Assembly: GCA_028284265.1 (NCBI GenBank)
Contig: JANQRZ010000024.1
Coordinates: 64,132 to 128,131, forward strand
Origin: Rhodothermales bacterium
Lineage (GTDB): Bacteria; Bacteroidota; Rhodothermia; Rhodothermales; JANQRZ01
DNA: 64,000 nucleotides
Direction of reading: 5' to 3'
Shown: positions 13,504-49,839 of the stretch, piece after piece
Layout of the letters: every line of letters begins with the position of its first letter
Numbering within the stretch: the first letter of the stretch is position 1
Notes under the pieces: model-generated
The model's input: only the letters and a program-made list of their open reading frames with translations
Databases searched by the model: none
Told to the model about the DNA's origin: nothing
Position numbers and translations under genes: made by a program

Positions 13504-13658
13504 GGCGATAGGCGGTTCGGGATAGGGAAAAACGCGGGCGAAGGTAAGACAAATGTAAACCGAGGAAGGCGAGATGTTGTTTTTTCTTGATTTGATTGCC
13601 TAGCTTCGCACATAGAGTAGATTCGGTTTTCCTTCGAGCCCTCAAGCCATTGCCTACC

Positions 13659-14858: not shown

Positions 14859-15310
14859 GCTCACAGCCGTGTCAATAAATGAGCCTACGCAATCTTTGGC
14901 TCTGCGAAAAACAGCGAGACCGGCCAGCGTGGACCGGTTTCAGGTAGTGCGGGGTACACCAAGATACGGGTTTGTCGAACCACGTCATCGATGGATTTCG
15001 CGAGCTTTATGCTCTTCATAATCTGTTGCCCGTCGATTCTATAGACAGGAAGCCATAAAAGCTAAGGCACGTCTAATAGCACCGTGCGGAAAGCCATGTG
15101 AATCGACGCCAGGAAATCATCCCTGATAGGGTCCAATAACCACTCCGAAGGAGACGAAGTGGAGAGTTTGTGCGTCTCGCATTGAGGGCAAAGCAACAGG
15201 ATGCGGTGGTAGTGATCGCTTACATTGATAGGGTTCCTGGGCGTTCCTCCCGGGCACCAACACAGGCTCTATTCAATGAACTCGACCCACCCATACCCGA
15301 AAAACCTCAA

Positions 15311-16912
15311 ATGCTGCGCCCGATTTTCCCTGTTTCTGATGTTGGCTCTGTCTCCGCGCAAGCTGTTATAGGACCTTCCCTTCAGCGCGCCTACCGTTGC
15401 ATCCCACTCGGCCTAGACGGTGAGCATCTCCGCATAGGTGTGGCGGGCGAGCTATCTGCCGAAGTGCTTCGAGAGCTTGCTTTTGCCACGGGGAAGCGTA
15501 TTGAGCAAGTGGCGGTCGATAGTGACGTCATCGAGCAGCACCTAGCGAAGATTGCAGACAGCGAACCTTCCGGGCAGGCAGTCGATGCGCTTGCCGACGA
15601 GGCTGCTGGGCAACACGGGGATGCAGAACCGGAAAACCAGACTGAAAGAAGCGGCGTAGAGAGCAGTCCGATGAGCCCATACACGTTGCCAATGACCGAC
15701 CTCCAAGTCGGTCCTGTTGTTCAACAGGTCGACCGGATCATCCAACGCGCGATCCGGCTTGGAGCGAGCGACATACACATTGAGCCCTACGAGGAGACGC
15801 TCCGCGTGCGCTACCGCTTGGACGGTTTGCTTCATCTGGCAGGCGAGCTTCGGTACGCGCAGCGCGAGGCAATCGTATCGCGGATCAAGGTTCTCGCCTC
15901 GCTCGACATCGCCGAGAAGCGTCGCCCTCAAGATGGACGGATCAGCATCACGCACACGCAAAGTGACTCTACCGGGCAGGCAGTTGGTTCAGGAGCACGG
16001 ACTGTTGATCTCCGGGTATCGGTGCTCCCTACGCATTTCGGGGAGAAAGCTGTACTCCGCATTCTTGACCGGGAGAGCCTGCGTCTTGACCTCGGCGCGC
16101 TGGGGCTTGCTGGGGCCTCGGCTGCGGCCTTCCATCGGGCTATCGAAGCGCCGCACGGGATGGTGCTGGTCACTGGGCCGACCGGCAGCGGGAAGACGAC
16201 TACGCTCTACGCTGCGCTGAGCGCACTCCCGCGAGAGCGCCTGAACGTAACGACGGTCGAGGACCCTATCGAGTACGACATCCAGGGGGTGAACCAAACC
16301 CAGGCAAGGCCCGAGATCGGGTTTTCGTTCCCCGAGGCGCTCCGGGCGTTTCTGCGCCAGGACCCGGACGTGATTATGGTGGGCGAGGTCCGGGACACAG
16401 AGACGGCCGAGGTCGCTGTGCGCGCCGCGCTTACTGGGCACCTCGTGCTGTCTACGCTCCACACGAACGACGCGCCCTCGACGGTGACGCGGCTTGTCGA
16501 CATGGGCGTTGCACCGTACCTCGTGGCAGCATCCGTTCGGCTGGTCGCTGCGCAGCGGCTGGTGCGCCAGGTGTGCCCAGGCTGCAAAGAGCCGTTGGAC
16601 CACGGCCAACTACCAAAGAATCTCGAGCGCGACCTGGAGCGGGTGCTCGGAGCAGGCGAAGCTGCCGAGCTAGTCCAGGGGAGAGGGTGCGATGCGTGCG
16701 GCGGAACGGGCTACCGGGGGCGGATGGCAATCTTCGAAGTCATGCCAATGACCGAAGTGGTAGCCCGGCTTGTTGCAGACGGTGCGAGCACGCAGGAAGT
16801 CCGCATGCAGGCCGAGTCCGAGGGTATGGAGTCGCTCCGCCAGGCGGCGGTGCGGAAGCTCGCCGCAGGTCAGACGACTATAGAGGAAGTTGTGCGCGCT
16901 ACCATCGCCTAG
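15311..16912 (+). CDS. Type II secretion / type IV pilus assembly ATPase (GspE/PilB family)
   Basis: The N-terminal T2SE_N-like domain reads YRCIPLGLDGEHLRIGVAGELS. Walker A is VTGPTGSGKTTT and Walker B is DPDVIMVGEVRD. The tetracysteine motif CPGCKEP...CDACGGTGYRGR is present. The track ORF opens at GTG 15170; ATG 15311 is preferred. Confidence 0.9.
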   Translation: MLRPIFPVSDVGSVSAQAVIGPSLQRAYRCIPLGLDGEHLRIGVAGELSAEVLRELAFATGKRIEQVAVDSDVIEQHLAKIADSEPSGQAVDALADEAAGQHGDAEPENQTERSGVESSPMSPYTLPMTDLQVGPVVQQVDRIIQRAIRLGASDIHIEPYEETLRVRYRLDGLLHLAGELRYAQREAIVSRIKVLASLDIAEKRRPQDGRISITHTQSDSTGQAVGSGARTVDLRVSVLPTHFGEKAVLRILDRESLRLDLGALGLAGASAAAFHRAIEAPHGMVLVTGPTGSGKTTTLYAALSALPRERLNVTTVEDPIEYDIQGVNQTQARPEIGFSFPEALRAFLRQDPDVIMVGEVRDTETAEVAVRAALTGHLVLSTLHTNDAPSTVTRLVDMGVAPYLVAASVRLVAAQRLVRQVCPGCKEPLDHGQLPKNLERDLERVLGAGEAAELVQGRGCDACGGTGYRGRMAIFEVMPMTEVVARLVADGASTQEVRMQAESEGMESLRQAAVRKLAAGQTTIEEVVRATIA

Positions 16913-17172: not shown

Positions 17173-20100
17173 ATGGTCACCGCAAAAATAGTGGGACGCA
17201 CCCGGCGTGCATGTTGGGTTCTCATTGCACTCGTTGCTACCTATCCAGTCAATGTATTGGCGCAGGGAATTGAGGCGCTCAACGGGTACGGCGTGCAGCC
17301 TGAAGTTCACCACTTCGCACGGCCTCAGACGGCTGGAGTGGATGCCTATGGTGATCTCAACCTCCAAGTCCCCGTGATGAATATTCCCGGGCGAGGAGGA
17401 CTCGACTTCGACGTTACCCTCAGCTACCGCTCAGGCATCAAGACGACACAGCGTGCATCGTGGGTGGGTCTTGGCTGGTCCTTCGATCCAGGTTCGATTA
17501 CGCGCTCCCCAAACGGTGGGGCGTCCATGAACAGTACGTTTTATAACGTTGACTTTGCAGAGCCTACCCAGTATCTCCAAGACACGTACTATCTGACCCT
17601 CCCCGGGCGTGGGACGACGGAGATGATCCGGCGTCATAATTTTCTTCCGGCGACGCCCAGTCCCTGGACGGGAGGGGATCTAGATCCGAATGGTTTTTCG
17701 CTTGCTTCGTGGCGCCCTTGGCGGGTCGAGTACTTTGCTGAGGAAGCAGGATACAACCTCATCGATGTCAATGATCTGGATCCAACAGTGGGATGCGCTG
17801 CGGAAGTTGCTGACTACCTCAAGGCCGGGAAGCTTACCTATGTCGGCAGTTCAGGGGATCCTCCTTGGGAGGACAAAGAGGAATTTTCCCACTTCGTAGT
17901 TACTACGGAAGACGGAACGCGGTACGTGTTCGCCGCGCCAACGCTGTCGACCTTCGTTGCAGGAATGCCTCCCAATCACACCGGAGTAGACTACCAGTCG
18001 CTGGAGTATTACGTGGGTGCGTGGCGACTTGTGGCTATTCTTGGCAACGATTACGCCTGGAACGGTGCGCTAAACACGATTCCTTCTAGGGCGAATAATA
18101 ACCTTGACGAGCCTGGCCGTTGGGTGGCGTTCGAGTATTCTCTAGCACAGGGCCTCCTGTCGAGCCGCTCGGGTAATACAGTCTATCCTGACTCTTGGAG
18201 GCATGTTGAGCACGCTCGCTATCTACAAGAGATTATCACGCCAACTCACTATGCTAAGTTTGAAGTGTCGGCTAGTGTTTTTTACGATGGAGGATGTACT
18301 AGCGGTGTCAACCCTGTGGCACGAGGAGAGCACCGGAGTCAACTCAACGGCATCAAGCTCTACAAGCGGGGCCCAGATGGCCAGCTGGAGATGCCGGACC
18401 ACCTTATCAAAGAGGTTCGCCTGGGGTTTGACAATACGCTACACTGCTCTCCGGCAACGTGCGCGGGCGCCAATCCGACGCATACCACGCTCAGTGAAGT
18501 ATATGAGATTGACCGCGCAGGTAACGCACTGCCTGGGTATTCGTTTGATTACGGGGCAAATGTCCCGGGGTGGAATCCAGACCCAGAAGAGTTACAGGAT
18601 TTCTACAGTACGGGGAATACCATTCACGCGATCAGCGATCACTTCCGTTACTTCAACAGGGGAGGAGGAGAGCCTTATGATCACGTCGGACGACACTACT
18701 TCGACACAGACGCTACTGATGCCCGGGCGTGGTCTCTCAGAAAAGTGACCTTCCCAACGGGGGCTTGGGAGCAGTACGACTACGAAAACGATCAGATCGA
18801 CGAACTCCTATATCAAGAGCCTCCCGACAGTGGTTGTGGATCCCAATGTCCAGTGCAAAACTTTACGAACATTCCTTTCTATAGGTATGACAGCGATTGG
18901 GAGGGATATGTTGCAGGTCAGGAGGCCTACTCCTTCAACGTTACATGGCCTCCAGGGACTATAGATCGCTTTGAGGAGCGGTACAGACAAGGTGGTGTGC
19001 GCGTAACCTCTATTACGCGGCCTGGCAGTGATGAAAGTGGCACCAGTCAAGTCACGCAGTACGAGTATGGCCCAGGTAACGCGACAGGGATACCATCTGG
19101 CTTCTGGCAAGAGTTCCAAAGGGACTACAGCGACTACATCTTTACCCCGCCCTCTCGGGGTAAGGACGCTGTCATCTATGATTCAGTAAAAGAGATCAAG
19201 CCAGACGGGACAGAGCGCTACCGAGAGTTTCTAACCTACAGAAAGTATGACATCTTCACGCCGGTAATCGGCGACCAGTACTCCACGCCGCGACGCGTTA
19301 GCTCGGTGTTCTTCCGAGATGAGGCTGATCCCAACTATATAACTGTCATTCAGGGAAATGAGCACCTCAACTGGGGGAGCGTTCTCTACGAGACCAACTC
19401 GTATTGGGGAGGGGCTTCATCGAACCGGATGACGCGGCGGTACTCGTGGCATGATCATCGGATTTACGCTGGCGCTCCAGTGTGGCCCCCAGCAGGGCAA
19501 AACCAGGGAGGCCAACCCGATGAAGCAAGAACGCCCTTCGCGGGCTGGATGCATGCGGGGCTTCTACTTGAGGAGCATGAGTTCGACGGGTACGAGTTCC
19601 AGTTTCCGGAGAGTGACATCTGGTCCACCCAAACAGGGGGCGCTATGCACCGGGGCGCTTGGTACGAATACGACCAAGGAAACAATCCCAATAATGGGTC
19701 TTTCCTTTTAAAGCGGAAGATCGAGACGGTAAGTCTGCCAAGCGACTTTGATTTCTCAAGCGACTGGCAGCGCCAGCTCCGCGTGACCGACTACACACGA
19801 GCCTACGAGAGCTACGCGAGTGTTGACCCCTTGCAGAATCCGTTCTTTGTGAGTGGCAACTTGGCTGCTGTCGCCCAAGAAACGGTCTCTGACGCACGGG
19901 TCGGGTGGCAAGACCAGATCAATGTCTGGGACGACATCAGTCACCCGATGGCGTCTGTGACACCTATGACATCGGTTGTGACGACATGGAGCAACACATT
20001 GGGAGTTGCCTCGTGGAAGCCGTCAGAGTCATACGTATGGCTCAAGGAGAATAGCGGGGAACTGGCCCACTATTGGAGCTCGTCAGTCTATCCGACGGAC

Positions 20101-23100
20101 TGGACTGGCGGTAGCGCGGGTGGTGACTGGTTGCTTCAAGAGAAGAACGTTGGCTTCGACCAGCACGGCCAGGTGACGAGCCGGACTGTAGGTGGTGTTG
20201 ACCTGTTACTCGAGTACGGGGGGTGGAAGAACACCGAGCTTCATAAGGTCACGGCAGGCAGTGGCAGTGAGACGGTCTCTCGCACGCTTTACTACGACTC
20301 GGAGACGGGTCTCCTTAACGAGGTCTTGGACGACAACGTGGAGGGGCCTTCGTTTGCCTACGACGAGAGCCTGCGGCTTGCCGAGACGCTCGATGCAGAG
20401 GGGCGCGTCACGGCAGCCCACAACTACCACCTCCGTGGTGAAGGGGGTATCGTCTCTAGTGCCCCTAGCCACGCAGAGACGGTTGTCTACGCCAACGGAA
20501 ACCTGATCCGAAACGGCTCCTTCGAGCTTGCCGAGCGGAATGGATGCCAACCAAGTGGCGCAGCGCAAGCGTGGACGATGGGCGGTGCCACGTTGCAGTG
20601 CTACCGAACGGACGCAGCCCTGGGTGTCTCGTATGCCGAGACTACCTCTTCAACGGCGATCACCCAGAGTGTCACAGTCGAACCGGGGCGAGAGTACGTC
20701 GTTGTGGTGTTTTTCGGCGGGGCGGGTGCTCAGGGGCGGCTGCTCCTCGCCGACGGAAGCGGATCGGCGAGTGGAATCGAGGTTCTGGATTCCGACGGAG
20801 ATCTTACTGAGGGGCAGTTGTCGGGCTGGCACACGCTCACCGAAGGGGGCGGCCAAAGTGGAGCGTGGCGGATGAGATGGGCACGGGTCCGACCGACCGT
20901 TAGTACGATGCAGGTGGGGCTTGCGCGGGAAGGCGGAGGTGGTGCCCTGCGGATCGATGCTGTTGCTGTGACGCCGATTCACGAGGGCTACGACCCTGAG
21001 CAGGACGACGACAGGTATCTGGACCTGGCATATCCTTCTGTTGCCGTGGGCTACACCAACCGCTGGGGCGAGACGGTGCAGACGGTCACAGCGGAGGGGC
21101 CGTATGCAATCTCAGAAGAGACAACGCAGCACCAGACGCTCGACGTGCTCGGGGCAGTCACGAAAGCCTGGCTCCCCGTCCGTGGGGAGTACGGCACGAG
21201 TGTGATTGGTGCCTACGGTACAGAAGCCCAGGTTGGCGCTCGTGCTTCGACCTATTATTCAGGGAGCCATGTAGATGATGGCGTCCCGGTGCCGGGAGCA
21301 GGAGGAGTGCCGTTTGCCGAGCAGGAGTACTACCAAGACCTCCACCGGATGCCCAAGCTCTCCCGGCCGCCGGGCGACGACTTCAGTGATGATGAGACGA
21401 GGTTCGAGCACGTCGTTGCGGGGGTCAGCGTTGAAGATGGGCGGGTCCGTACCGAACTTGGACGGGTCGAGGACCCTGACGGACGGATCACCCATACCTA
21501 CGTCGACTCAGAAGGGAAAGAATGGATGAGGCGGCAGGTAGGGTCGAGCGATCAGCTACCAGAGGACTCCAAAGTACTCCACAACTACGTCGATGGTGCT
21601 AACTATCAGACCTGTGGGGCACCTCGAGAGGCAGCACCGGAGACGGGTCTGCCCCAGCGTACGCCGGTTTCGGGGCCGTGTCCTGTGATAGAAGAGGTTA
21701 CCGTGCAGCTTCGCCAGGCCATCGAGTACGAGGTCCATCTCGAAGTTGGCGGACTGACCAACGCCGGGCTAGTGATTGCAGAAGTCAATGTCTACGAAGA
21801 AGACGCAGGGACGTCGTGGCCCTACTACCACCCCATTCTCGTGATGCGCGAGACGGTGTCCAACGAAGTGAGTGAGGCGTGCTCGGAGACCTATGACGGA
21901 ACTCAAAGCCCTCAGATAGACAACTGCCGCTACGCTCTGAAGACAGGGTTTGTGCTGGCCCGACCCGGGAAGAGGTACATCTTCGAAGCGAACACGCTCA
22001 TCACCACCGACGACGATCATACCGTAGAGAAGCACGCTAGGGTGGATGCGATCGTTCGCTATTACGCTGGGGATCTAGCTTCAGGTGTCACACGGCCGTT
22101 TACGGAGACAGAGTCCGAGTATGACTTCAACGGCAACCTCACCGTGGTCCGCCCGCCGAACTACTTCGAGCCGCCGAGTGGCACCGACAGCGACTACGAG
22201 ACGCGCTACACCTACGACTCGGCGGGCCGGATGCTCTCGCAGCGCACGCCGGATGCCGGGACGACGACCTATGGGTACGACGAGCATAGCCGGATGCGCT
22301 ATAGCCAAGATGCCAATCAGGCGGCTGCAAACAGTGGGGCAGGCGAGTTTATGCTGTACTGCTACGATTCGGTTGGAAGGATCTCAAGGCAGGGGTTGGT
22401 AGACGTACTTCCTCCTGCGGGAACGTGCCCGGGCGAGACCGACCAGAGTGTGGACTGGCGGCTCATCAACCGCTACGATGAGGCGGTAAACCTCTCCGAT
22501 GCGCCATTCAATGGGTGCAACGCAGGATGTGCTTCGTTCGAGTCGCAGTTAGAGAACACGGCAGGGCGGCTGGTCGCCTCGGCCCATAAGAGCAACGGGC
22601 AGTGGCAGGCGACGTTCTACTCCTATGATGCCGACGGCCGGGTGGTGATAGAGGCCAAGCGTGCTGATGGTGCTGCACCCGAATGGGATTACCATCGCTT
22701 CGCCTACGACGCAAGCGGTAAGGTCGTCTGGACGAACGTGGACATTGGCGATCACGAACTCACCCACTACTATACCTATGACCGGCGTGGGCTGCTTCAC
22801 CGCTCCTATGTCTCATCACAGGCTTCCATGCCGTCGCGCCCCGCAGAGCCGGATGCCGAGTACACCTACGACGTCGCGGGCCGCATGGCAAAGGTGGGTC
22901 TTCGGAAGACCAACGGAGGTAGCTTCAGGGTCTTGACGCCCTACACCTATGACATCCAGGGGCGGCTCGTTGCCATTGGAGGCATCGATAAGGATCCGTG
23001 GGCATCGTCAGCCCCCTTCTCGTCTCGTTACACGTACAGCGCCGCAGGACTAATCGAGCGTGGGGACTATCTCACGCCGGATGCAGTCCAGTATGCTAGT

Positions 23101-25191
23101 AGTATCACCCCCCAAGACGGGCAGTGGCCGCGTTGGCAGTACCGCTACGAGTACGACGGGCTCGGGCGTTTGGCCAACGCCAAGTATCATGAGTACCGGC
23201 AGCCGCCTTCGACTGGCTACGATCCACCTGAGATGACCGGTCTGCAAGAGGGACCCATCGTCTATGATGCCAATGGCAACATTACGGCGCTTCAGAGACG
23301 GGTGCCAGCCGCATCGGGTGGAGCAAGTGTGATCGACGATCTCACCTACAGCTACACGCCCGGGACGAACCGGCTAAGTGGCCTCGGGGAGGCGGCCGGT
23401 GGATCGTCTCCGCCTTGGGACGCGGAGGCCATGTCGCTCAGCTACGACCCCAACGGGAACGTCACCGTCATGGACAGCGGCGGGGAGCAAACCTCGTTTG
23501 CGAAGTACGACGAGCGCAACTTGCCGCTCAGGGTGACGACGCCGGATGACCTAAACGTTCACTACCGCTACGACGCCAGCGGTCAGCGGATCGGTCTTCA
23601 GGTCAACACCGTGGGCTTCAACGCAGGCTCTGGGGGGACCGACCCACACTACAAGGTAGAGCGCTACGCACGTTCTGGGGCCAACCTCGTGGGCACCTTC
23701 GATGGCGAGGGCAACCTCCTGCATTGGAATATGCAGGGCGGCCCCGGCGGCCCCATTGGGCGCATCTACCCGACGAGTGTCACCATCGCGCTCGTCCGCG
23801 AGGTGGCCGAGCAGCGCATCCGCGACACCCTCGCCGTCTACAGCCAGACGTATGTAGCTGAGGGTCTCGCCCACGCAGGACTCGCACAGGCGGAGGCCGA
23901 CAGTCTTGCAGCCGTTGGAGCGACGAGCACCGACGCGGCTTTCGACTCCGGCGTGGTGCCGTCGGTCGATGTGGTGGTAGACACGACGCAGGCGCAGGCC
24001 AATCAGGCCGGGCAGGCGTACTACGCGGCGGTACTGACTGCGACGGAGGATGCGCTCCGGGGAACGCTTGTCGGGGCAGGCTACGCGCAGGGCGTGGCGG
24101 ACTCACTCGCGGCCATCTCAGCGGCGGAGGCGGCTGCGCGGGCAACAAGCAGCGTGCAACAGGTGATCGCGGCGGCGCAGCAGTACCCGGTCGGGGGAAC
24201 GTATCTGGAGCGCTCGTACTACGTGAAGGATCACCTGGGGTCGGTACGGGCGACGGTGAGCCAGTACGGTTCGGTGCGCGAGGCGCGGGACTACTACCCG
24301 TTCGGGCTCGAAATGCCGGGGCGCGTGTGGGTCAGTGGGAGTGAGACGAGGGAAGGCTTCACGGGGCACGAGTTGGATGTGGAGACGGGGCACTACTACG
24401 CCGGGGCGAGGTACTACATGCCTGCGCTCGGTAGGTGGACGACGACCGATCCAATGAATGAGTATGCCTCACCGTACATCTATGTGGGCAACAACCCGAT
24501 CAGTTTGGTCGATCCCACAGGGATGTATAGTGACGACGGGTGGCTGGATCAACAGCAGGAACAGCTCAACAGCCGGATTGGGATTAGTGGCGGAGGTGGA
24601 GATTGTCCTGATGGGACGCCTCCGCCTTGTGAAGATTCTGAAGGCGAAAAGGGTATTGGTGATAAAATTAAAGACGGTTTAACTGCTGTTGCAGTATCTG
24701 CGATTGGGATAGGAGAAGACGGTGTCGACGCTGCATCTAGATTAAGTGGTCGAGCCTTAGAAAGTGTTAAGAACCGTGCCGCTCGCTTCTCAGTTGCAAG
24801 TCGGGAGGCAGCAGAGGATATTTTGTATAGTATAGAGCGAGCCAAGGCGTCTCGATTAAACGGTTTGGCGAGAGGAACTCAAGCCTTGGGTGTCGTGGTT
24901 ATTGTTGTGGACGGTGTAATAGCGTTTGAAAGGGCTGGGGATTATCTAGAACAAGGAAGACATGTAGAGGCTATCGGCGAGGTGGTCGAATTTGGTGGAA
25001 ACACATTAGGAGGCGTAGGTGGAGCTGGGCTAGGTTTCGGGTTCGGAATGCTGATTACATCAGGTTCAGCTGGAACGGGTGCACCTGTGATAGTTCCCTT
25101 GACTCTCGGTGGCGGTTACATCGGTGGACAGCTAGGAACCCCTTTGAGAAGTGGTACTGAACGATTGTTACGATCATTTGGACTTGAGTAA
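17173..25191 (+). CDS. Giant Rhs/YD-repeat polymorphic toxin 1 (SpvB/TcB-like N-terminus, Rhs cocoon, variable C-terminal toxin)
   Basis: The signal peptide is MVTAKIVGRTRRACWVLIALVATYPVNVLAQG. An SpvB-like motif (PVMNIPGRGGLDFDVTLSYRSG...GLGWSF) lies at 17353-17503. There are many YD repeats, for example YTYDSAGRMLSQRTPDAGTTTYGYDEHSRMRYSQD. The Rhs core YYVKDHLGSVRA...YYPFGLEM...GFTGHELDVETGHYYAGARYYMPALGRWTTTDP ends at DPTGM (24511-24525). Confidence 0.9.
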   Translation: MVTAKIVGRTRRACWVLIALVATYPVNVLAQGIEALNGYGVQPEVHHFARPQTAGVDAYGDLNLQVPVMNIPGRGGLDFDVTLSYRSGIKTTQRASWVGLGWSFDPGSITRSPNGGASMNSTFYNVDFAEPTQYLQDTYYLTLPGRGTTEMIRRHNFLPATPSPWTGGDLDPNGFSLASWRPWRVEYFAEEAGYNLIDVNDLDPTVGCAAEVADYLKAGKLTYVGSSGDPPWEDKEEFSHFVVTTEDGTRYVFAAPTLSTFVAGMPPNHTGVDYQSLEYYVGAWRLVAILGNDYAWNGALNTIPSRANNNLDEPGRWVAFEYSLAQGLLSSRSGNTVYPDSWRHVEHARYLQEIITPTHYAKFEVSASVFYDGGCTSGVNPVARGEHRSQLNGIKLYKRGPDGQLEMPDHLIKEVRLGFDNTLHCSPATCAGANPTHTTLSEVYEIDRAGNALPGYSFDYGANVPGWNPDPEELQDFYSTGNTIHAISDHFRYFNRGGGEPYDHVGRHYFDTDATDARAWSLRKVTFPTGAWEQYDYENDQIDELLYQEPPDSGCGSQCPVQNFTNIPFYRYDSDWEGYVAGQEAYSFNVTWPPGTIDRFEERYRQGGVRVTSITRPGSDESGTSQVTQYEYGPGNATGIPSGFWQEFQRDYSDYIFTPPSRGKDAVIYDSVKEIKPDGTERYREFLTYRKYDIFTPVIGDQYSTPRRVSSVFFRDEADPNYITVIQGNEHLNWGSVLYETNSYWGGASSNRMTRRYSWHDHRIYAGAPVWPPAGQNQGGQPDEARTPFAGWMHAGLLLEEHEFDGYEFQFPESDIWSTQTGGAMHRGAWYEYDQGNNPNNGSFLLKRKIETVSLPSDFDFSSDWQRQLRVTDYTRAYESYASVDPLQNPFFVSGNLAAVAQETVSDARVGWQDQINVWDDISHPMASVTPMTSVVTTWSNTLGVASWKPSESYVWLKENSGELAHYWSSSVYPTDWTGGSAGGDWLLQEKNVGFDQHGQVTSRTVGGVDLLLEYGGWKNTELHKVTAGSGSETVSRTLYYDSETGLLNEVLDDNVEGPSFAYDESLRLAETLDAEGRVTAAHNYHLRGEGGIVSSAPSHAETVVYANGNLIRNGSFELAERNGCQPSGAAQAWTMGGATLQCYRTDAALGVSYAETTSSTAITQSVTVEPGREYVVVVFFGGAGAQGRLLLADGSGSASGIEVLDSDGDLTEGQLSGWHTLTEGGGQSGAWRMRWARVRPTVSTMQVGLAREGGGGALRIDAVAVTPIHEGYDPEQDDDRYLDLAYPSVAVGYTNRWGETVQTVTAEGPYAISEETTQHQTLDVLGAVTKAWLPVRGEYGTSVIGAYGTEAQVGARASTYYSGSHVDDGVPVPGAGGVPFAEQEYYQDLHRMPKLSRPPGDDFSDDETRFEHVVAGVSVEDGRVRTELGRVEDPDGRITHTYVDSEGKEWMRRQVGSSDQLPEDSKVLHNYVDGANYQTCGAPREAAPETGLPQRTPVSGPCPVIEEVTVQLRQAIEYEVHLEVGGLTNAGLVIAEVNVYEEDAGTSWPYYHPILVMRETVSNEVSEACSETYDGTQSPQIDNCRYALKTGFVLARPGKRYIFEANTLITTDDDHTVEKHARVDAIVRYYAGDLASGVTRPFTETESEYDFNGNLTVVRPPNYFEPPSGTDSDYETRYTYDSAGRMLSQRTPDAGTTTYGYDEHSRMRYSQDANQAAANSGAGEFMLYCYDSVGRISRQGLVDVLPPAGTCPGETDQSVDWRLINRYDEAVNLSDAPFNGCNAGCASFESQLENTAGRLVASAHKSNGQWQATFYSYDADGRVVIEAKRADGAAPEWDYHRFAYDASGKVVWTNVDIGDHELTHYYTYDRRGLLHRSYVSSQASMPSRPAEPDAEYTYDVAGRMAKVGLRKTNGGSFRVLTPYTYDIQGRLVAIGGIDKDPWASSAPFSSRYTYSAAGLIERGDYLTPDAVQYASSITPQDGQWPRWQYRYEYDGLGRLANAKYHEYRQPPSTGYDPPEMTGLQEGPIVYDANGNITALQRRVPAASGGASVIDDLTYSYTPGTNRLSGLGEAAGGSSPPWDAEAMSLSYDPNGNVTVMDSGGEQTSFAKYDERNLPLRVTTPDDLNVHYRYDASGQRIGLQVNTVGFNAGSGGTDPHYKVERYARSGANLVGTFDGEGNLLHWNMQGGPGGPIGRIYPTSVTIALVREVAEQRIRDTLAVYSQTYVAEGLAHAGLAQAEADSLAAVGATSTDAAFDSGVVPSVDVVVDTTQAQANQAGQAYYAAVLTATEDALRGTLVGAGYAQGVADSLAAISAAEAAARATSSVQQVIAAAQQYPVGGTYLERSYYVKDHLGSVRATVSQYGSVREARDYYPFGLEMPGRVWVSGSETREGFTGHELDVETGHYYAGARYYMPALGRWTTTDPMNEYASPYIYVGNNPISLVDPTGMYSDDGWLDQQQEQLNSRIGISGGGGDCPDGTPPPCEDSEGEKGIGDKIKDGLTAVAVSAIGIGEDGVDAASRLSGRALESVKNRAARFSVASREAAEDILYSIERAKASRLNGLARGTQALGVVVIVVDGVIAFERAGDYLEQGRHVEAIGEVVEFGGNTLGGVGGAGLGFGFGMLITSGSAGTGAPVIVPLTLGGGYIGGQLGTPLRSGTERLLRSFGLE
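24526..25188 (+). other. Variable C-terminal toxin domain of Rhs1 (glycine-zipper/hydrophobic, putative membrane-disrupting)
   Basis: This is the 221 aa after the DPTGM cleavage-type motif, where the DNA turns AT-rich. Hydrophobic Gly-rich tracts are ALGVVVIVVDGVIAF and LGGVGGAGLGFGFGMLITSGSAGTGAPVIVPLTLGGGYIGGQLG. Confidence 0.55.
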
Positions 25192-25259: not shown

Positions 25260-25847
25260 ATGACACCTGTAGGAAGTTGTAATTTAGGCTGTACGAAGAT
25301 CACCGCGCCAAAGCCGATGCCTAATAGAAGACATGCTTATCATGGTGAAAACCATGTGGAGTTGAGGATCAAAAAGATTGTAATATCACTTTGGATTTTT
25401 ATGATATTACTTGGAATGTACATCTTGATTTCTGATGGCGATCGCATTGGGAATATGGTGCCTAGCTATGTGATTCTGTTGCTGTTTTTGATGTTTGCTA
25501 TTGCTCTGCTCCAGCCTATTATTACGTATCGCGTACTGCTTAATGATAGGGGCATTCATGTGAAATGGGTTCTGGGTGCAAAAAAATGTAAGTATCTTTA
25601 CAGGCGTAAAGCGTCTTGGGAAAGCGTAAAGGAATTGTCTGTATTAAACATAGGGCTAAAGCCTATGGTGCTCAATTCCATTATCATCCATTGTGTTGGT
25701 GATGTGGAGAATGTCAGTTTTGCGCTGAATAACATGCTTGTTGACTTTCGATGTGGCGCTAAGTATGTGCTAGAAAACGCAAAAACAAAAAAAATAGACT
25801 CGAGAATCATAGACTCCTATTATAACTACACATCAAGATCGGATTAG
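25260..25847 (+). CDS. Putative cognate immunity protein 1 (two-TM membrane protein with small C-terminal domain)
   Basis: The gene lies 68 nt after the Rhs1 stop on the same strand and is very AT-rich: line 25381-25440 is 18/60 G+C by hand count. TM helices are IVISLWIFMILLGMYILI and YVILLLFLMFAIALLQPII. The architecture resembles membrane-flanked bPH/DUF304-type proteins (from memory). The start is uncertain; an alternative ATG is at 25317. Confidence 0.55.
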   Translation: MTPVGSCNLGCTKITAPKPMPNRRHAYHGENHVELRIKKIVISLWIFMILLGMYILISDGDRIGNMVPSYVILLLFLMFAIALLQPIITYRVLLNDRGIHVKWVLGAKKCKYLYRRKASWESVKELSVLNIGLKPMVLNSIIIHCVGDVENVSFALNNMLVDFRCGAKYVLENAKTKKIDSRIIDSYYNYTSRSD

Positions 25848-26207: not shown

Positions 26208-28406
26208 GTGACCGACCCCACAGGAAACCATAGAGCTGCACCGTACTCACGCACACGGTGGGTCCGTTCGGCACGCCTTGGTGCCGCATTTACATTCATC
26301 TTCCTCTCGCTAGCTGTCCTCCCGACTCCGGCGGCCCAAGCTCAAGACACTCCGCCCGGTGAACCGGCGGAACCCCTGCCGGGTGTTCCAGAGATCCGCG
26401 TCAACCGGGGCGGGCGGCTTCCGGCGGCAGCCTTCGACCAGATCCAGGCGATCAACTTCAAGAACACCGACCTGCGGGACATCTTCCGGGCGGTCGCCGA
26501 GGAGTCCGGCCTAAACCTCGTCATCGACGACCGTATTACCGAGCGCGCGACGGTCGCGCTCCGGGACCTCAGCGTGCTCGATGCGCTCGTCTTCCTGGCT
26601 GAAGAATACGAACTCTCGCTCATTCAGTCGGGCTCGGTTTTCCGCGTTCTGGTCCCGGACCCTGGGCCTCCGCCTCCTGCCCCTGTGCCGCGTCCGATAG
26701 ACGTTCTGTTCCGGGACGGCCTGATAACAGCGGACTTCCGGGGCGATCCGGTGGAGCGCGTCGTGCGTCTGCTGGCCGAGGCGACCGGCGAGACGATCCT
26801 CCTTTCGGCGGGCACCTCGGGCACGGTAAGCGGGCTGCTTCAGCGGGTCCCGTTCGAGACCGGACTCCGGCGGCTTCTCGAGACGAACGGGTTTGCCGTC
26901 CGGCTTGTAGACGGGGTCTACGTAGTGGACCAGGGGTTTCTCGCTTCGCCCGAGGAGCCGCCCGTCCCCGGAAGCTACGTCCGGGTGGACTCGACGGGCG
27001 TCGAGCTACGCCTGGAGCAGGCCGACGCCGCGCGTGTACTCCGGGAGCTGGCCCGCCAGTCCGGGGACGGGATCGTGACGTACTCTCTACCTCAGGGGCG
27101 AACCATAACCGCGAGCGCTGCCGGGCTTTCCGTGGAAGAGGCTCTCGGGGTTGTCCTGCGCGGGACCGGGATTTCGTTTCGGCGAGAGCCTACCCCGGAT
27201 GGGTCGCCGCTCTGGGTGGTCGGCAGCCGCGAAGGGGACGGAATCACAGCGACCGAACTGATCCGGCTTGGCTTCACGCGGGTCGATGGCGTGGAACCAC
27301 TGCTCCCCTCGGAACTCGCCGCCCGTGCCTCGGTCCAGGTCGTGCCCGAGCAAAACGCGCTCCTCGTCACCGGCTCCAACGATGCCATCGCCGAGGTTCG
27401 GGCCTTCGTCCGGGCGCTCGACTACCCGGCCCCGCAGATCCTGATCGAAGCACTGGTCGTCGACTACCTCGACACCGAGGCCACGCGCTTCGGCTTCACC
27501 TTCGGGCAGGGGAGTTTCGCAGGCGACTCTCTTCAAGCGCAGCGGGAGCGCGCCTACCGTCTTGACGGCCTCGGCGACGGTGCGTTCACGCTCGAAGGCG
27601 ACGGCGGCGACGTGAACTACGCGCTCCGCGAGGTGGAGGACTTCTTCGGGATCGGCTCCATCGGACGCCTCCCGGCAGACTTCTACTTCCGCATCGAGGC
27701 GCTTGCGCGCGAGGGGAAGCTCGAGATCCGGTCCCGCCCCCAGATCGCCACGCTCAGTGGCAACACCGCCTCGCTCTCGATTGGGACGACGCAGTACTTC
27801 ATTCTCGAGACCGAGAACCCGCTCCTCGGGCAGGGCCAGGTGGTGGTCCAGACCTCGGAGCGCTTCGAGAAAATCGAAGCCAACGTGAGCCTTGAGGTGA
27901 CGCCCTTCGTGAGTCAGACCGGCGAGGTGACGGTCAACATCAAGCCCGAGTTCTCGACGCCCGTTGGGCAGTTCCAGCCCGACGTGCCGCCGACGATATC
28001 GAGCCGAGTCTTCGAGTCGAACGTCCGGCTCCGCGACGGGGAGACGATCATCCTTGGTGGGCTGATCTCAGACGAGGAGGTGATCGACGACAACAAGATC
28101 CCGATACTCGGCGACATCCCGGTCCTCGGGTGGCTCTTCCGCAGCCGGGTGCGCTCGACGAGAAGGAGCGAGCTTGTGATCTACCTCACGCCGCACGTCT
28201 TTTACGGCGACGGGCGCGACCAGGACCGGTGGCGAGCACTCTCCGAGGAGTTGGAGCTTCACGACGAGGGCGTGTTCCTCGTACCGAGCGATCTCAAAGA
28301 AGGGGGCGACCCTGAAGAGAGGGTTGACATGGTGGATGATGCGGAGCCGGACGACGAAATGGTGCCAGAGGACGAGGAGGTAGACGATTCGGGAGGGCAT
28401 CCGTGA
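26208..28406 (+). CDS. Secretin (GspD/PilQ family outer-membrane channel)
   Basis: The protein has a signal peptide (...LAVLPTPAAQAQ) and an N-domain motif INFKNTDLRDIFRAVAEESGLNLVIDD. The C-terminal secretin core reads NVRLRDGETIILGGLI...IPILGDIPVLGWLFRSR...ELVIYLTPHV. The start is GTG and the C-terminal tail is acidic. Confidence 0.9.
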   Translation: MTDPTGNHRAAPYSRTRWVRSARLGAAFTFIFLSLAVLPTPAAQAQDTPPGEPAEPLPGVPEIRVNRGGRLPAAAFDQIQAINFKNTDLRDIFRAVAEESGLNLVIDDRITERATVALRDLSVLDALVFLAEEYELSLIQSGSVFRVLVPDPGPPPPAPVPRPIDVLFRDGLITADFRGDPVERVVRLLAEATGETILLSAGTSGTVSGLLQRVPFETGLRRLLETNGFAVRLVDGVYVVDQGFLASPEEPPVPGSYVRVDSTGVELRLEQADAARVLRELARQSGDGIVTYSLPQGRTITASAAGLSVEEALGVVLRGTGISFRREPTPDGSPLWVVGSREGDGITATELIRLGFTRVDGVEPLLPSELAARASVQVVPEQNALLVTGSNDAIAEVRAFVRALDYPAPQILIEALVVDYLDTEATRFGFTFGQGSFAGDSLQAQRERAYRLDGLGDGAFTLEGDGGDVNYALREVEDFFGIGSIGRLPADFYFRIEALAREGKLEIRSRPQIATLSGNTASLSIGTTQYFILETENPLLGQGQVVVQTSERFEKIEANVSLEVTPFVSQTGEVTVNIKPEFSTPVGQFQPDVPPTISSRVFESNVRLRDGETIILGGLISDEEVIDDNKIPILGDIPVLGWLFRSRVRSTRRSELVIYLTPHVFYGDGRDQDRWRALSEELELHDEGVFLVPSDLKEGGDPEERVDMVDDAEPDDEMVPEDEEVDDSGGHP

Positions 28407-28481
28407 CATTCCCCACTCCGACGGATCACGAGGGGTGCAGTGTGGTGCCCCGGCGGTACACGGCCCAGCGCGGAGTACGCG

Positions 28482-30023
28482 ATGCGAGCGGCTGACCTTC
28501 TGCGGGTGCCCTACCTTCAGCGCGTCGGCGTCGGGCTCCACATCGGGCCCCGCGCAGTGCGCTGGGTGGAACTCTCGCGCTCCTTCGCTGGGGTGCCTGG
28601 CCTAGAGTCCTCCTTAGGACGGCTCCGGCTCCGGCGCTCCGAGGTCGAGCCGGTGGAAGGCGGGCAGCACGAGGCTGCGCTTGAGCGCCTCATGGCCCGC
28701 GTCCAGCCCGCCTCCCCGTTCGTCCACACGCACGTTGACCCGGAGCACGTCCGGGTCCACTTCGAGACGGCCCCTGCGTTTGAGGACGACGAGGATCTCG
28801 CCGCGTGGCTTGCCGAGCGACCGTCGCGGTATGTACCAGCAGGCAGCACCGCGTCTGAGTTCATCGCCCGGACGGCCGTCGTGTCGAGGCATCCGCCGGG
28901 GGACTCAGAAGGCGCGCGGTGTCTCATCTCGCTTGCCCGGCGCGAGGCGGTCGAGGAGCGGGCGGCCATGCTGGAGCGCGTAGGACTCGTTCCGCTTAGA
29001 ATAGGAACCGGTATCGTGGAGGTAGGCTCGGCCTTTGCTTTCGACCCGGACTATGAGGCAAGCGAGCCGGTCGTGGTACACGTCTGGGACGACGCTGCTG
29101 GGGATGAGGCAGCGACGGCCCTGCAAACGCGGCGGGCGATGCCGTATGATTTGGCAGTTCTTCCAGGTGTGCTCTCGGCTGGCCTGCCGCTAGACGGTCT
29201 GGTGTCGGAGATAGAGGCGCACTTTGGTGGGGCACTTCGGCTTGCCTCCCCAGACCGCGAGGGCGAGCGGGGTACCGTCTGGATCACCGGAGCGGTGGAA
29301 CGGAGCGGTCTAGCCAGTGGGGGGTACGCAGGTGCCCAGCGTCCTCGCATCATGCGGCCTCTGGCGACAGTCCTAAAAGGGAGGGTGGTTCCGGCGGATT
29401 CCGTTCTAGCAGCCTCCCTTGCGACTGAGGCCCTATACCCGGAACTCGCCCTGATGGACGTGCAGCGCACGGCTCAGACCGAGGAGGCCGAAACCGAGCA
29501 CGAGAAGCAGGAGGCCTACCGGGCCGTGCTTGGCCTCGGGGTGTTGGTACTCGCACTCCTCATTCTCTCAGGCGCGGCTGGGTGGATGCTCCAAACTAAA
29601 GTCGACGAAGTCCGGGTCTCGGTGGCGAGTCAGTCGGGTGAACTGGCAGAGCTTGCCACGGCGCGCAGGATGCAGGAACGACTGAGGGCCGACCTCGCTG
29701 TAGGGCGCGCGCTGGTCCACGAGCGAACCGTAGCCGCGGTCGTGCTTGAAGCTGTGGGGCAGGCTGTCCCAGACGAGATGGAACTCAGCAGCATCCAGTT
29801 TGAAACATCGCCCGGCGGCGATGTGGTTGTTGCCCTCTCCGGGTGGACAGCGACCCCTGCTGGGGTTCGGGACCTCATCGAGCGCCTCGAAGCAGACGAG
29901 CGGTTCTCTGGGGTTCGCTTGCTTTCCACCGAGCGCCTAGATGGAAGTCAAGCTGAACGCGAGACGGGACGCTCAATATCTGTGACCGTATTCTCACTTT
30001 CTGTAGTCTACCGTCGCTCGTAG
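28482..30023 (+). CDS. PilM-like / PilN-like fusion protein (pilus or T2SS inner-membrane assembly component)
   Basis: An N-terminal ~350 aa soluble region has a PilM-like layout. It is followed by one TM helix (AVLGLGVLVLALLILSGAAGWML) and a PilN-like periplasmic tail (ELSSIQFETSPGGDVVVALSGWTATPAGVRDLIERL). The assignment rests on architecture and gene context. An alternative GTG start is at 28440. Confidence 0.6.
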   Translation: MRAADLLRVPYLQRVGVGLHIGPRAVRWVELSRSFAGVPGLESSLGRLRLRRSEVEPVEGGQHEAALERLMARVQPASPFVHTHVDPEHVRVHFETAPAFEDDEDLAAWLAERPSRYVPAGSTASEFIARTAVVSRHPPGDSEGARCLISLARREAVEERAAMLERVGLVPLRIGTGIVEVGSAFAFDPDYEASEPVVVHVWDDAAGDEAATALQTRRAMPYDLAVLPGVLSAGLPLDGLVSEIEAHFGGALRLASPDREGERGTVWITGAVERSGLASGGYAGAQRPRIMRPLATVLKGRVVPADSVLAASLATEALYPELALMDVQRTAQTEEAETEHEKQEAYRAVLGLGVLVLALLILSGAAGWMLQTKVDEVRVSVASQSGELAELATARRMQERLRADLAVGRALVHERTVAAVVLEAVGQAVPDEMELSSIQFETSPGGDVVVALSGWTATPAGVRDLIERLEADERFSGVRLLSTERLDGSQAERETGRSISVTVFSLSVVYRRS

Positions 30024-38438: not shown

Positions 38439-38822
38439 ATGTTAAGACCCACAATCATAGAACTCCTTGAATCACTAGGCAACATGGAGGAGTGTATAAT
38501 TGAAAATATCGTATGGAAGAATTATGGAACTACTTTGGTAGTAGACATAATACGTCCAGGTGCGTCAGGAAATGCAAGACTCAAGTTCGATACCGTTCTG
38601 TATTTTCTAATGAATAATAGTATGACTAATCATATGATTGATAATATTAATGAGTTGAACTGGGGATACTCTGAGATGGCAATTGCTGAGTATCAGGAGC
38701 AATCAAAAATCATTGATAAGTATGAGAGTTCGAAAACACCTCTCCACCATGTGAATTTCTTGTGGGAAGACGAGAGGAGGATCGAGATAGTCTTTGGTGT
38801 CTTAAATCTTGAGATTTTATAA
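38439..38822 (+). CDS. Putative cognate immunity protein 2 (small acidic cytosolic protein)
   Basis: The ATG lies 1 nt after the Rhs2 stop (TAG-G-ATG). The gene is strongly AT-rich, encodes 127 aa, and has no TM helix or signal peptide. Confidence 0.6.
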   Translation: MLRPTIIELLESLGNMEECIIENIVWKNYGTTLVVDIIRPGASGNARLKFDTVLYFLMNNSMTNHMIDNINELNWGYSEMAIAEYQEQSKIIDKYESSKTPLHHVNFLWEDERRIEIVFGVLNLEIL

Positions 38823-39238: not shown

Positions 39239-39862
39239 TTGGCCACTTTGGACCGTCCACCTCTCGGAAAATGGAGCCGCGTGGCTCTCCTCGCACTTGG
39301 AGTAGCTGTGCTCATCACGGTGCTCGAAGTCGTACCACGCTTCGGGAGCGCCCTCGAACTGGCTACGGAGTGGCGAGCACTCGAGAGCCAGCGCGCCGAG
39401 GCGGCTGGGGCTCCTGCTGCTCGCCAAGCTCTTGCAGCCGAGAACCGGAGGCTCCGGCAGCAACTGAATGAGCTCTTCGTAAGTCTCCCCAGCCGCGATC
39501 AGCTCTCGGCAGTCTTGGGTGAGCTTCAGCGCCACGCAGCGGAGACCGGGGTGACTCTTGAGCGCATAGAACCGGGTGAGGTGATGCCGGAGCGCACGCA
39601 TGAGGTACTCCCGCTTGCCGTAGAGATCCAGGGACCGTTCCACGCCACCGGACGCTTCGTGGACCGCGTCGAGCGCTCCCCGCTTCTGATTCAAGTCCAG
39701 GCCCTCAGCATCCGTCGCCAAAGTGAGGCCCCAAGCTCCGAGAGAGTTTCAGTAGAGACGACGCTGAACCTAGAGTCAGTTCGGCTTGGAGGGGGCGCGA
39801 GTCAAGACGAGGTGGGCGAAGACACAGACCGCAATAGCTCAAGTGAGAGACGTAATGGGTGA
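39239..39862 (+). CDS. PilO/GspM-like pilus assembly protein
   Basis: A short N-terminus is followed by a TM helix (VALLALGVAVLITVLEV), a coiled coil (ALAAENRRLRQQLNEL) and a ferredoxin-like C-terminus (PLAVEIQGPFHATGRFVDRVE). There is no in-frame ATG near the N-terminus. The start is TTG 39239 or GTG 39281 and is uncertain. Confidence 0.55.
   Translation: MATLDRPPLGKWSRVALLALGVAVLITVLEVVPRFGSALELATEWRALESQRAEAAGAPAARQALAAENRRLRQQLNELFVSLPSRDQLSAVLGELQRHAAETGVTLERIEPGEVMPERTHEVLPLAVEIQGPFHATGRFVDRVERSPLLIQVQALSIRRQSEAPSSERVSVETTLNLESVRLGGGASQDEVGEDTDRNSSSERRNG

Positions 39863-48231: not shown

Positions 48232-49839
<1,608 letters not shown>

Follow-up and report, generated by a model that had tools for sequence, protein, structure and literature searches.

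Rhs toxins, the BC cocoons of the insecticidal Tc toxins and natural fusions of the B and C halves are well known, and the recognised delivery routes of Rhs proteins are type VI secretion (through the T6SS), the Tc pathway with its TcA component and, in monoderms, Sec. The last is exemplified by WapA of Bacillus subtilis, a Sec-dependent, surface-exposed YD/Rhs toxin that acts upon contact and whose monoderm producer has no outer membrane for it to cross. Natural tcB-tcC fusion genes are already known in Proteobacteria, for instance in B. pseudomallei (PMC7861908). A link between Rhs proteins and type II secretion (through the T2SS) has also been suggested for the gspG-linked Rhs families of Xanthomonas and Ralstonia, for which T2SS use was proposed from gene linkage (bioRxiv 10.1101/2025.05.08.652813). 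On the side of the machines, Denise et al. noted that the 'so-called T2SS of Bacteroidetes' branches with the type IVa pilus (T4aP) and could be a secretion system in its own right (PMC6668835), and Wang et al., working on the Bacteroidetes T2SS of Cytophaga, identified no direct substrate (PMC5553014). Here we analyse a stretch of 64,000 nucleotides from a Rhodothermales bacterium (contig JANQRZ010000024.1, positions 64,132 to 128,131; hereafter the window), which encodes two very long paralogous Rhs proteins, Rhs1 and Rhs2. Their genes are interleaved with those of a predicted T2SS-like type IV filament (T4F) machine in what appears to be a single plus-strand operon. This context is the most informative feature of the locus and was absent from an earlier description made from the sequence alone (hereafter the preliminary description). 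We put the chances slightly above even that Rhs1 and Rhs2 are antibacterial, single-chain TcB-TcC-like Rhs cocoons, which are exported by Sec and then handled by the co-encoded T4F machine.

Rhs1 (17173..25191, plus strand; 2672 aa) and Rhs2 (30206..38437, plus strand; 2743 aa) correspond to the two very long plus-strand open reading frames (ORFs) of the window, the first of which can be opened at either 17026 or 17173. The latter is the correct start: it is the one annotated by NCBI for the 2672-aa product, and it yields a signal peptide that fits the family consensus. BLASTP aligns the two proteins end to end over about 2650 residues with 885/2648 identities (33%, E = 0). Both translations share the motif PGRGGLD(F/Y)x(V/I)TLSYxSGI...W(V)GLGWxFDPGS close to the N-terminus as well as the motifs FVVTTEDGTRYVF, KYDERNLPL and DPHYKVERY. 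Rhs1 begins with a predicted Sec-type signal peptide (aa 1-31, 17173..17265, plus strand; ...VLA/QG), with the cleavage point read from the sequence as lying between MVTAKIVGRTRRACWVLIALVATYPVNVLA and QG; in Rhs2 the equivalent peptide would be cleaved between GGGVLVLLLLSSFAWA and QP. The family consensus is a signal peptide of about 20 residues ending in AQ, with which Rhs1 agrees, and the structural model of Rhs1 places a low-confidence helix at residues 11-23. Signal peptides are likewise present in most of the complete homologs. The two proteins have the Sec/Tat signal peptide, and with it the periplasmic intermediate, that is expected of substrates of T2SS and type IV filament machines. 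The reading frames, the collinearity of the paralogs, the motifs and the signal peptides had all been noted in the preliminary description, and each was verified in the translations and by BLASTP.

The predicted operon opens with an assembly ATPase of the GspE/PilB type with an MshEN domain (15170..16912; Pfam T2SSE, E = 2e-127), which lies directly upstream of Rhs1. Behind Rhs1 and its putative immunity gene are a secretin with N0, STN and Secretin_N domains (26208..28406; Pfam Secretin, E = 1e-42) and a GspL-like or PilM-PilN-like inner-membrane component with a C-terminal PilN domain (28440..30023), which is conserved in related clusters. Rhs2 and its own putative immunity gene come next, followed by a PilO/GspM-like gene (39239-39862; Pfam PilO, E = 4e-15; NCBIfam GspM, E = 2e-6), a weakly GspC-like gene (39786-40343; NCBIfam GspC, E = 2.5e-4), a major pseudopilin with an N_methyl motif (40496-41059), an A24 prepilin peptidase (41082-41723), a large PilX_N minor pilin of 498 aa (41714-43210), a conserved ORF (43207-43848), a GspJ-like minor pseudopilin (43845-44504) and the GspF/PilC platform protein (44558-45766), all of them on the plus strand. 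The parts of this machine score equally for T4aP and T2SS equivalogs, all below the curated cutoffs: in NCBIfam the ATPase reaches 558 bits for PilB and 526 bits for GspE, and the secretin 196 bits for both GspD and PilQ. These equal scores fit the published T4aP affinity of the Bacteroidetes T2SS (PMC6668835). The clusters described from Cytophaga hutchinsonii (CHU_3191-3202) and Flavobacterium (Fjoh_0611-0622) have the same complement of E, D, F, G and O components, minor pseudopilins and PilMNO-like proteins together with the same T4aP-like affinity, and the Flavobacterium locus L062 (L numbers denote the loci that we fetched) has the G-O-E-D order listed for Fjoh_0615-0618. The window cluster is probably orthologous to the CHU and Fjoh clusters. 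A difference is that the published descriptions know of no direct substrate and mention no link to Rhs, whereas the machine genes of the window have two toxin genes set among them. At the end of the cluster lies a 378-aa ORF (46023-47159) with only a weak match to a Fis-type helix-turn-helix; as the related cluster of L117 includes a sigma-54 activator, it could represent a regulator of the system that has degenerated.

The association between Rhs genes and T4F clusters was examined in both directions. In the forward direction, loci with the N-terminal module of Rhs1 (see below) were collected from a species-level genome collection and from metagenomes and searched with the T4F proteins of the window. 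Among 28 non-redundant loci with the full module and at least 4 kb of upstream sequence, 15 encode at least one T4F homolog and 12 encode two or more different ones. By our estimate, the chance expectation is about 1-2% for a cluster that a genome contains once or twice, and with an assumed background of 2% the binomial estimate for 15/28 is about 1e-18. As in the window, L087 and L103 have the ATPase gene immediately upstream of the Rhs gene; L001, L008 and L019 show a divergent arrangement, and in L053 and L096 the Rhs gene follows the peptidase gene. When loci that match only the first ~115 residues are considered, most of them from Bacteroidota, a T4F cluster adjoins 11 of 49, including those of cultured Gracilimonas, Flavivirga, Algibacter, Aquimarina and Flavobacterium. 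Profile-profile comparison with hhalign showed that the T2SS-adjacent B-like proteins of Flavobacteriia share the whole N-terminal module (probability 100, E = 5.5e-43 over 619 columns). In the reverse direction, Rhs or B-like genes occur within 10 kb in five of eight loci anchored on homologs of the window secretin. An Rhs or B-like gene lies inside the T4F cluster in L115 and divergent from the ATPase in L119; in L116 the ATPase comes after a 2997-aa Rhs gene and two orphan cassettes, the L117 cluster is flanked by Rhs genes on both sides, and the Rhs cores of L122 share 65-72% identity with that of Rhs1. Loci with this linkage belong to Rhodothermales, Calditrichota, KSB1, Zixibacteria, Cloacimonetes, Gracilimonas and Flavobacteriia (Flavivirga, Algibacter, Flavobacterium and Aquimarina). 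As judged from these gene neighbourhoods, the two-way linkage between Rhs and T4F genes is conserved across phyla.

Such linkage speaks for an association with the machine, and it supports as strongly as secretion a different mode of use, namely that the Rhs cocoon rides on the tip of a short pilus or pseudopilus, bound to the minor-pilin complex as PilY1 is on type IVa pili, and acts in a contact-dependent manner with no release. The cluster is as T4aP-like as it is T2SS-like, with PilB scoring at least as well as GspE and PilC at least as well as GspF (PMC6668835), and the unusually large 498-aa PilX_N minor pilin is conserved beside Rhs genes in many loci. However, no PilT-type retraction ATPase is encoded in the window, and the GspL-like fused PilM/N protein together with the weakly GspM-, GspC- and GspJ-like parts leans toward T2SS. 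Further, a tip-mounted cocoon would meet the same size problem at the secretin as a secreted one (see below), and a model of aa 380-790 of Rhs1 matches PilY1 (3hx6) at chance level (E = 2.2, probability 0.01). We therefore regard fibre-mounted delivery as unlikely, if still worth serious consideration.

The N-terminal half of Rhs1 sets the family apart. A module spanning aa ~40-740 (17290..19392, plus strand), which starts in an SpvB-like manner and continues into a TcB-like sheet, is conserved in a 30-sequence alignment (A1) and in the Foldseek and hhalign comparisons, and is the family's signature. The first 1100 residues have few homologs: a word-indexed search among 5.8 billion clusters recovered 36 matches with at best 35% identity, and an exhaustive one among 1.84 billion recovered 90 representatives at E <= 1e-30, a number that rises to 2232 at E <= 1e-3. 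Alignment A1 also formed the basis of an AlphaFold (AF2) model of residues 1-1100 (predicted TM-score, pTM, 0.83; mean pLDDT 72). The eight best Foldseek matches of this model in the PDB are all TcB chains or TcB-TcC fusions, namely YenB (4igl_A/C, 5kis_A, 9c4k_P), TcdB2-TccC3 (6suq, 6h6f, 6h6e) and TcdB1 (6l7i_F), with E-values from 5e-23 to 6e-19 and query-normalised TM-scores (TMq) of 0.37-0.42; YenB 4igl_A is matched at E = 5e-23 and TMq 0.39-0.42. T6SS Rhs proteins follow at E about 1e-17 with TMq of 0.08-0.14, teneurins have TMq of about 0.1, and the isolated SpvB N-domain (6p0x) is matched at E = 3e-6 with a target-normalised TM-score of 0.47. The comparison with TcdB2-TccC3 (TMq about 0.4) that the preliminary description had called for accordingly turned out in its favour, and at the level of the predicted fold the BC-like reading is supported, with a moderate similarity to the overall B-subunit cocoon.

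At the level of sequence profiles the resemblance is fainter. The Pfam SpvB profile reaches only a sub-threshold match, and that in Rhs2 alone (E = 0.0076, 15.9 bits against a cutoff of 22), though two homologs carry PF03534; neither TcdB_toxin_midN/midC nor FG-GAP has a hidden Markov model (HMM) match in Rhs1 or Rhs2. In a profile search of PDB sequences with A1 the YD repeats dominate, and there was no TcB match for the N-terminal module. Hence, of the profiles that the preliminary description had named, RHS_repeat and the Rhs core are matched, while SpvB remains sub-threshold and TcdB_toxin_midN/midC and FG-GAP fail. For aa 380-790, where TcB has its TcA-docking propeller, a separate model (pTM 0.75) gave no significant beta-propeller match, residues 800-1650 not having been modelled separately, and a TcA-docking propeller retained in aa 380-790 was rejected on that ground. 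We conclude from these models that the shell begins as TcB does, the element for docking and gating on TcA, by which TcB function is defined, not being demonstrated. The middle region (aa 1100-1660) has no match in Pfam or PDB sequence searches. At its start, a segment beginning GNLIRNGSFE (aa ~1112-1260; 20506..20952, plus strand) resembles, on weak evidence, an inserted beta-sandwich of the carbohydrate-binding module (CBM) or lectin type. Its Rhs2 equivalent has a weak choice_anch_C match (E = 0.0013) and the Gracilimonas homolog carries Laminin_G_3 at the same position, pointing to a possible target-binding domain.

These results bear on whether Rhs1 and Rhs2 could be the BC subunit of a genuine Tc (ABC) toxin directed at eukaryotes, with the TcA encoded elsewhere in the genome. 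TcB proteins are indeed the best fold matches and natural tcB-tcC fusion genes do exist, as in B. pseudomallei (PMC7861908). Nevertheless, neither the window nor any of 11 annotated related loci has a TcA gene, nor is there a TcA-type domain on any annotated neighbour in the secretin-anchored or related loci; the SpvB match is sub-threshold, and there is no TcdB_mid or FG-GAP HMM match and no propeller match. The proteins moreover have predicted Sec signal peptides and an immunity-like gene after each tip, and TcC is 96% proteobacterial (PMC7861908) whereas the present family belongs to the FCB (Fibrobacteres-Chlorobi-Bacteroidetes) group. Membership of the true Tc family was rejected, neither a propeller nor a TcA having been found in the segments and loci covered, and we regard the possibility of a distant TcA partner as very remote. 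The preliminary description had taken the two proteins for natural TcB-TcC fusions: this holds in that TcB is the best fold match, the C-terminal part aligns to YenC2 and TccC2 and split B-like and C-like relatives exist, but does not extend to the SpvB, TcdB_mid and FG-GAP profiles, to a TcB-type propeller or to a TcA. Its further suggestion of a delivery context other than that of Tc toxins proved right, given the predicted Sec signal peptides and the T2SS-like operon.

In summary of the comparison with TcB-TcC cocoons (YenB/YenC2, 4igl; TcdB2-TccC3, 6h6f/6suq), both begin in an SpvB-like manner and continue into a YD/Rhs shell, both have a DPxG junction in their Rhs core and end in a C-terminal toxin that varies, and both exist in one-gene and two-gene forms, with TcB-TcC being the best global fold match for residues 1-1100. 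The window family differs in the signal peptides on all parts, the immunity genes after the tips, the FCB hosts, the lack of a TcA partner gene and of a detectable TcA-binding propeller or TcdB_mid signature, and the embedding of its genes in a T2SS-like operon as against the release of Tc toxins by lysis.

The C-terminal half follows the plan of Rhs/YD-repeat polymorphic toxins. The YD-repeat shell of Rhs1 (aa ~1640-2195; 22090..23757, plus strand) is delimited by Pfam RHS_repeat and TIGR01643 matches, the YenC2 alignment and the positions of the YD motifs. RHS_repeat (PF05593) is matched at E = 2e-12 in Rhs1 and 1e-19 in Rhs2, TIGR01643 matches too, and DUF6443 matches Rhs2 only. With some 13-15 recognisable YD motifs per protein, the 'dozens' of repeats announced in the preliminary description were a generous count, though the repeats themselves are there. 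The Rhs-associated core (TIGR03696; 74 bits in Rhs1 and 68 bits in Rhs2 against a cutoff of 32.5) lies at 24196..24525 in Rhs1, where it also matches SGS1, TccC2 and YenC2, and at 37595-37834 in Rhs2. The C-terminal part of the protein aligns by sequence to YenC2 (aa 2048-2461) and TccC2, and the best PDB sequence match is the core of SGS1. Both aspartates of the catalytic positions of the Rhs core can be read from the sequence (TTDP/TTDQ and DPTG), and the junctions DPTGM at aa 2447 of Rhs1 and DPTGN at aa 2540 of Rhs2 are the presumed sites of autoproteolysis. Beyond them lie unrelated tips of 221 aa in Rhs1 (24526..25191, plus strand) and 199 aa in Rhs2 (from 37838, plus strand), bearing out the earlier reading of a core with a DPTG(M/N) junction and a variable tip. 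Since searches of Pfam and of PDB sequences returned no match for either tip, their activities have to be read from composition: the Rhs1 tip is glycine-zipper-rich and hydrophobic and for that reason probably acts on membranes.

A small low-GC gene directly follows each tip. The first (25260..25847, plus strand), assigned as putative immunity protein 1 from its position and low GC, codes for two predicted transmembrane helices and has a weak DUF6585 match; the second (38439..38822, plus strand), putative immunity protein 2, begins 1 nt past the Rhs2 stop codon and codes for a small, acidic, cytosolic protein with a weak YxiG-like match (E = 0.0034). The GC content of tip and immunity gene is 0.44 compared with 0.59 in the gene body. 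A tip with a small downstream gene is the classical layout of Rhs polymorphic toxins and their immunity proteins, and with the YD repeats and the Rhs core it places Rhs1 and Rhs2 among these toxins. The immunity-like genes argue that both are antibacterial polymorphic toxins rather than insecticidal Tc components, and their target would accordingly be other bacteria. Orphan core-plus-tip cassettes are also present in related loci.

Two further observations concern the exchange of tips. Within the core, a stretch of 176 nt (24282-24457 in Rhs1, 37585-37760 in Rhs2) is 86% identical at the DNA level, far above the remainder of the two genes, and is a likely candidate substrate for tip-swapping recombination or gene conversion. 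In the Cloacimonetes locus L116 (4606-8235), the two orphan core-plus-tip cassettes between the 2997-aa Rhs gene and the ATPase are annotated with both T2SSE and YD-shell matches; they appear to include parts of the ATPase gene, which looks as though the ATPase served as a downstream recombination anchor for tip replacement.

T6SS Rhs effectors such as RhsA (7q97), Tse5 (8cp6) and Tse15 (8uxt) resemble the window proteins in having a YD shell, an Rhs core with an aspartyl autoprotease and a polymorphic tip with a cognate immunity gene; Tse5 even has a glycine-zipper, membrane-acting tip like that of Rhs1. The window proteins differ from them in having a signal peptide as opposed to cytoplasmic loading, in lacking PAAR, prePAAR or VgrG linkage, and in being roughly double in size, owing an additional ~1100 aa to their N-terminal half, and in the low fold similarity given above. 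By HMM searches, PAAR and prePAAR domains are absent from Rhs1 and Rhs2 and the C-terminal Por_Secre_tail sorting domain of the type IX secretion system (T9SS) has no match in either; the window encodes no PAAR, VgrG, Hcp or EagR neighbours. The absence of TcA, PAAR/VgrG and a T9SS tag recorded in the preliminary description was in this way confirmed for the two proteins and for the rest of the window, and membership of T6SS and T9SS was rejected, as their defining features were not found. WapA, the teneurins and mosquito SGS1 share the signal-peptide-dependent, surface-exposed YD shell, yet teneurins and SGS1 are eukaryotic surface proteins with no dedicated bacterial export machine. The gspG-linked Rhs families of Xanthomonas and Ralstonia resemble the present case in that use of a T2SS by Rhs proteins is a proposal drawn from linkage in both; they differ in being proteobacterial, in being linked to a single gspG gene and in coding for Rhs proteins of ordinary size.

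Most related loci encode the shell and the toxin-bearing part separately: a B-like gene of 1700-2200 aa is followed, after 2-95 nt, by a C-like gene of 450-2070 aa with YD repeats, the Rhs core and the tip (for example L061 of Flavivirga, L041, L013, L002 and L003). As every C-like ORF opens with a start codon and a predicted Sec signal peptide of its own, these pairs are real genes and not frameshifts; C-like genes with a signal peptide of their own start at 14998 in L061, 16255 in L057, 15494 in L041, 14523 in L008, 15381 in L002 and 14967 in L003. It follows from these peptides that the B-like and C-like parts would meet in the periplasm or outside the cell, unlike TcB and TcC, which assemble in the cytoplasm. 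Taken together, the predicted signal peptides on the window proteins, their homologs and the split C-like partners fit a two-step pathway with the periplasm as its first station. Given that in the relatives a B-like gene usually adjoins a C-like one, Rhs1 and Rhs2 may fairly be described as 'single-chain BC'. In these two an Ala-rich insert of ~145-158 aa separates the shell from the Rhs core (23758..24192 in Rhs1 and 37046-37519 in Rhs2, both plus strand). The inserts are 35% identical to each other (E = 8e-13), contain a duplicated motif AGYAxxxADSLAA and are probably helical. None of the 122 fetched loci yielded a counterpart, suggesting that the insert is lineage-specific: in other single-chain relatives (L007, L014 and L015) the shell is joined directly to the core, and the B-like ORFs of L002, L003, L053 and L087 end in '...GRIEPxxx*' exactly where the Ala-rich insert of Rhs1 and Rhs2 starts. 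In one Rhodothermales metagenome-assembled genome, short GspF-like fragments lie directly upstream of three Rhs paralogs (L002 9690-9977, L003 9634-9855, L011 9201-9643). One fragment is annotated as a 68-aa T2SSF gene and one of the three paralogs is on an 82-kb plasmid-like contig; the fragments may be remnants of co-duplication with T4F genes or a small conserved gene.

From these elements the following pathway may be proposed. Sec would export each Rhs protein to the periplasm by way of its cleavable signal peptide, and the protein would there fold into a YD-repeat shell, the first part of which is SpvB/TcB-like. The Rhs core would probably cleave at DPTG(M/N), with the tip of ~200 aa remaining enclosed. 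The T4F machine, a T4aP-related 'Bacteroidetes-type T2SS', would then handle the toxin and most likely move it across or onto the outer membrane, so that it may act outside the cell on neighbouring bacteria. The producer would be protected by the immunity genes, that is, by the two-helix membrane protein in the case of the glycine-zipper tip of Rhs1 and by the small cytosolic protein in the case of Rhs2. The sequence data show the Sec step, the domain anatomy with its TcB-like N-terminal fold, the layout of the operon and the two-way linkage across phyla; autoproteolysis, encapsulation, reliance on the machine, the bacterial target and the passage of the outer membrane are inferred.

Several points weigh against this pathway. 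The TM-scores of the AF2 model to TcB are only ~0.4, with a large rmsd. About half of the homolog loci have no T4F gene within reach, some complete T4F clusters such as that of L120 have no neighbouring Rhs gene, and linkage as such does not prove that the Rhs proteins are substrates; co-mobility, with recombinase and tRNA neighbours here and plasmid-like relatives elsewhere, could also inflate it. Mutants of the Cytophaga system show outer-membrane and cellulose-utilisation phenotypes (PMC5553014), and the T4F system could serve other main functions, such as pilus adhesion or DNA uptake. Finally, there is the matter of size. The BC cocoons of Tc toxins measure ~10 x 13 nm and the lumens of secretins ~6-8 nm; as the cocoon exceeds the lumen, a folded cocoon of ~290 kDa should not pass a conventional secretin. 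This discrepancy keeps alive the fibre-mounted mode considered above as well as the two alternatives that follow.

In one of them, the filament machine replaces TcA: the cocoon stays at the envelope of the producer, docked on the T4F machine, and after autoproteolysis the unfolded tip alone threads out through a secretin/pseudopilus conduit. This would dispose of the problem of passing a 290-kDa shell through a secretin, and it accords with the TcB-like N-terminal half and with the lack of a TcA gene in the annotated loci. To our knowledge, it has no precedent. The model is speculative; moreover, no TcB-type propeller, the TcA-docking and gating element, was detected, and inserts of the lectin or CBM type suggest contact of the entire shell with the target surface. 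We consider it quite improbable.

In the other, the Rhs cassettes and the T4F cluster are merely fellow passengers of mobile islands or plasmids, or the operon is a site where insertions are tolerated, and the toxins leave by lysis, in vesicles or through an unknown outer-membrane pathway. Just past the T4F-Rhs cluster, a large serine recombinase gene (48175-49839) overlaps a tRNA-Lys (49764-49839, minus strand), and the cluster is lower in GC content than its flanks; the window was searched for a repeat of the tRNA-Lys 3' end as the mark of an attachment site, and none was found. Some related clusters are carried by Rep3/ParA plasmid-like contigs (L003/L010 and L115) or near integrases (L122), which suggests that the Rhs-T4F system may be mobile as a whole, and true Tc toxins are released by lysis (PMC10847048). 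Against mere hitchhiking, the linkage spans at least six phylum-level lineages with varied gene orders and identities down to 25-30%, and because it persists across such divergent lineages, recent co-transfer is hard to reconcile with it. The signal peptides on every component speak against release from the cytoplasm by lysis. Further, the pieces of the ATPase gene that the orphan cassettes of L116 appear to carry suggest that the Rhs-ATPase junction itself recombined as a unit. We accordingly find this explanation improbable.

Returning to Sec-exported Rhs cocoons handled by their T4F machine, there is a substantial chance that the family is the cognate cargo of the Bacteroidetes-type T2SS. 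A bolder proposition, which we advance tentatively and rate somewhat below even, is that the Bacteroidetes-type T2SS acts, at least partly, as a dedicated weapon system, with Sec-exported TcB/TcC-like Rhs cocoons, single-chain or in B-like and C-like parts, as its cognate cargo, thereby forming a hitherto unrecognised interbacterial route of toxin delivery that spans the FCB superphylum; the strongest version puts the filament machine in the role of TcA. A literature search covering a part of the journals found no paper linking the Bacteroidetes T2SS to Rhs or SpvB-type proteins, nor a description of a rare Sec-dependent TcB/TcC-like Rhs family of the FCB group, fused and split, whose genes are interleaved with or conserved beside a Bacteroidetes-type T2SS. 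The conserved pairing of Rhs and T4F genes points to a so far undescribed route of antibacterial toxin export, and a conserved, interleaved cargo family offers a concrete and testable answer to the question of the substrate of the Bacteroidetes T2SS (PMC6668835, PMC5553014). If true, a type IV filament machine of diderms would join the known routes of Rhs delivery, presenting the mechanistic puzzle of how a cocoon of ~290 kDa, or its toxin, crosses the outer membrane by a secretin-based machine. Cultured carriers such as Gracilimonas tropica, Flavivirga jejuensis, Algibacter, Aquimarina and Flavobacterium make genetics feasible, and BC-like cocoons that fold outside the cytoplasm may be of use in protein encapsulation.

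Some neighbouring genes deserve mention. Upstream of the operon, a GDSL lipase (11839-13503, minus strand) carries the C-terminal T9SS sorting domain, indicating that the host uses a T9SS, whereas the Rhs proteins have no such tag. This tail and the FCB-group origin of the homologs place the host in the FCB group, probably close to Rhodothermales. An ORF on the opposite strand that overlaps the lipase gene (12328-13590) is probably spurious. Beyond the recombinase and the tRNA, a gene for a MoxR-type AAA ATPase is followed by three consecutive genes for SurA/peptidyl-prolyl isomerase-like periplasmic chaperones (50516-56181, minus strand).

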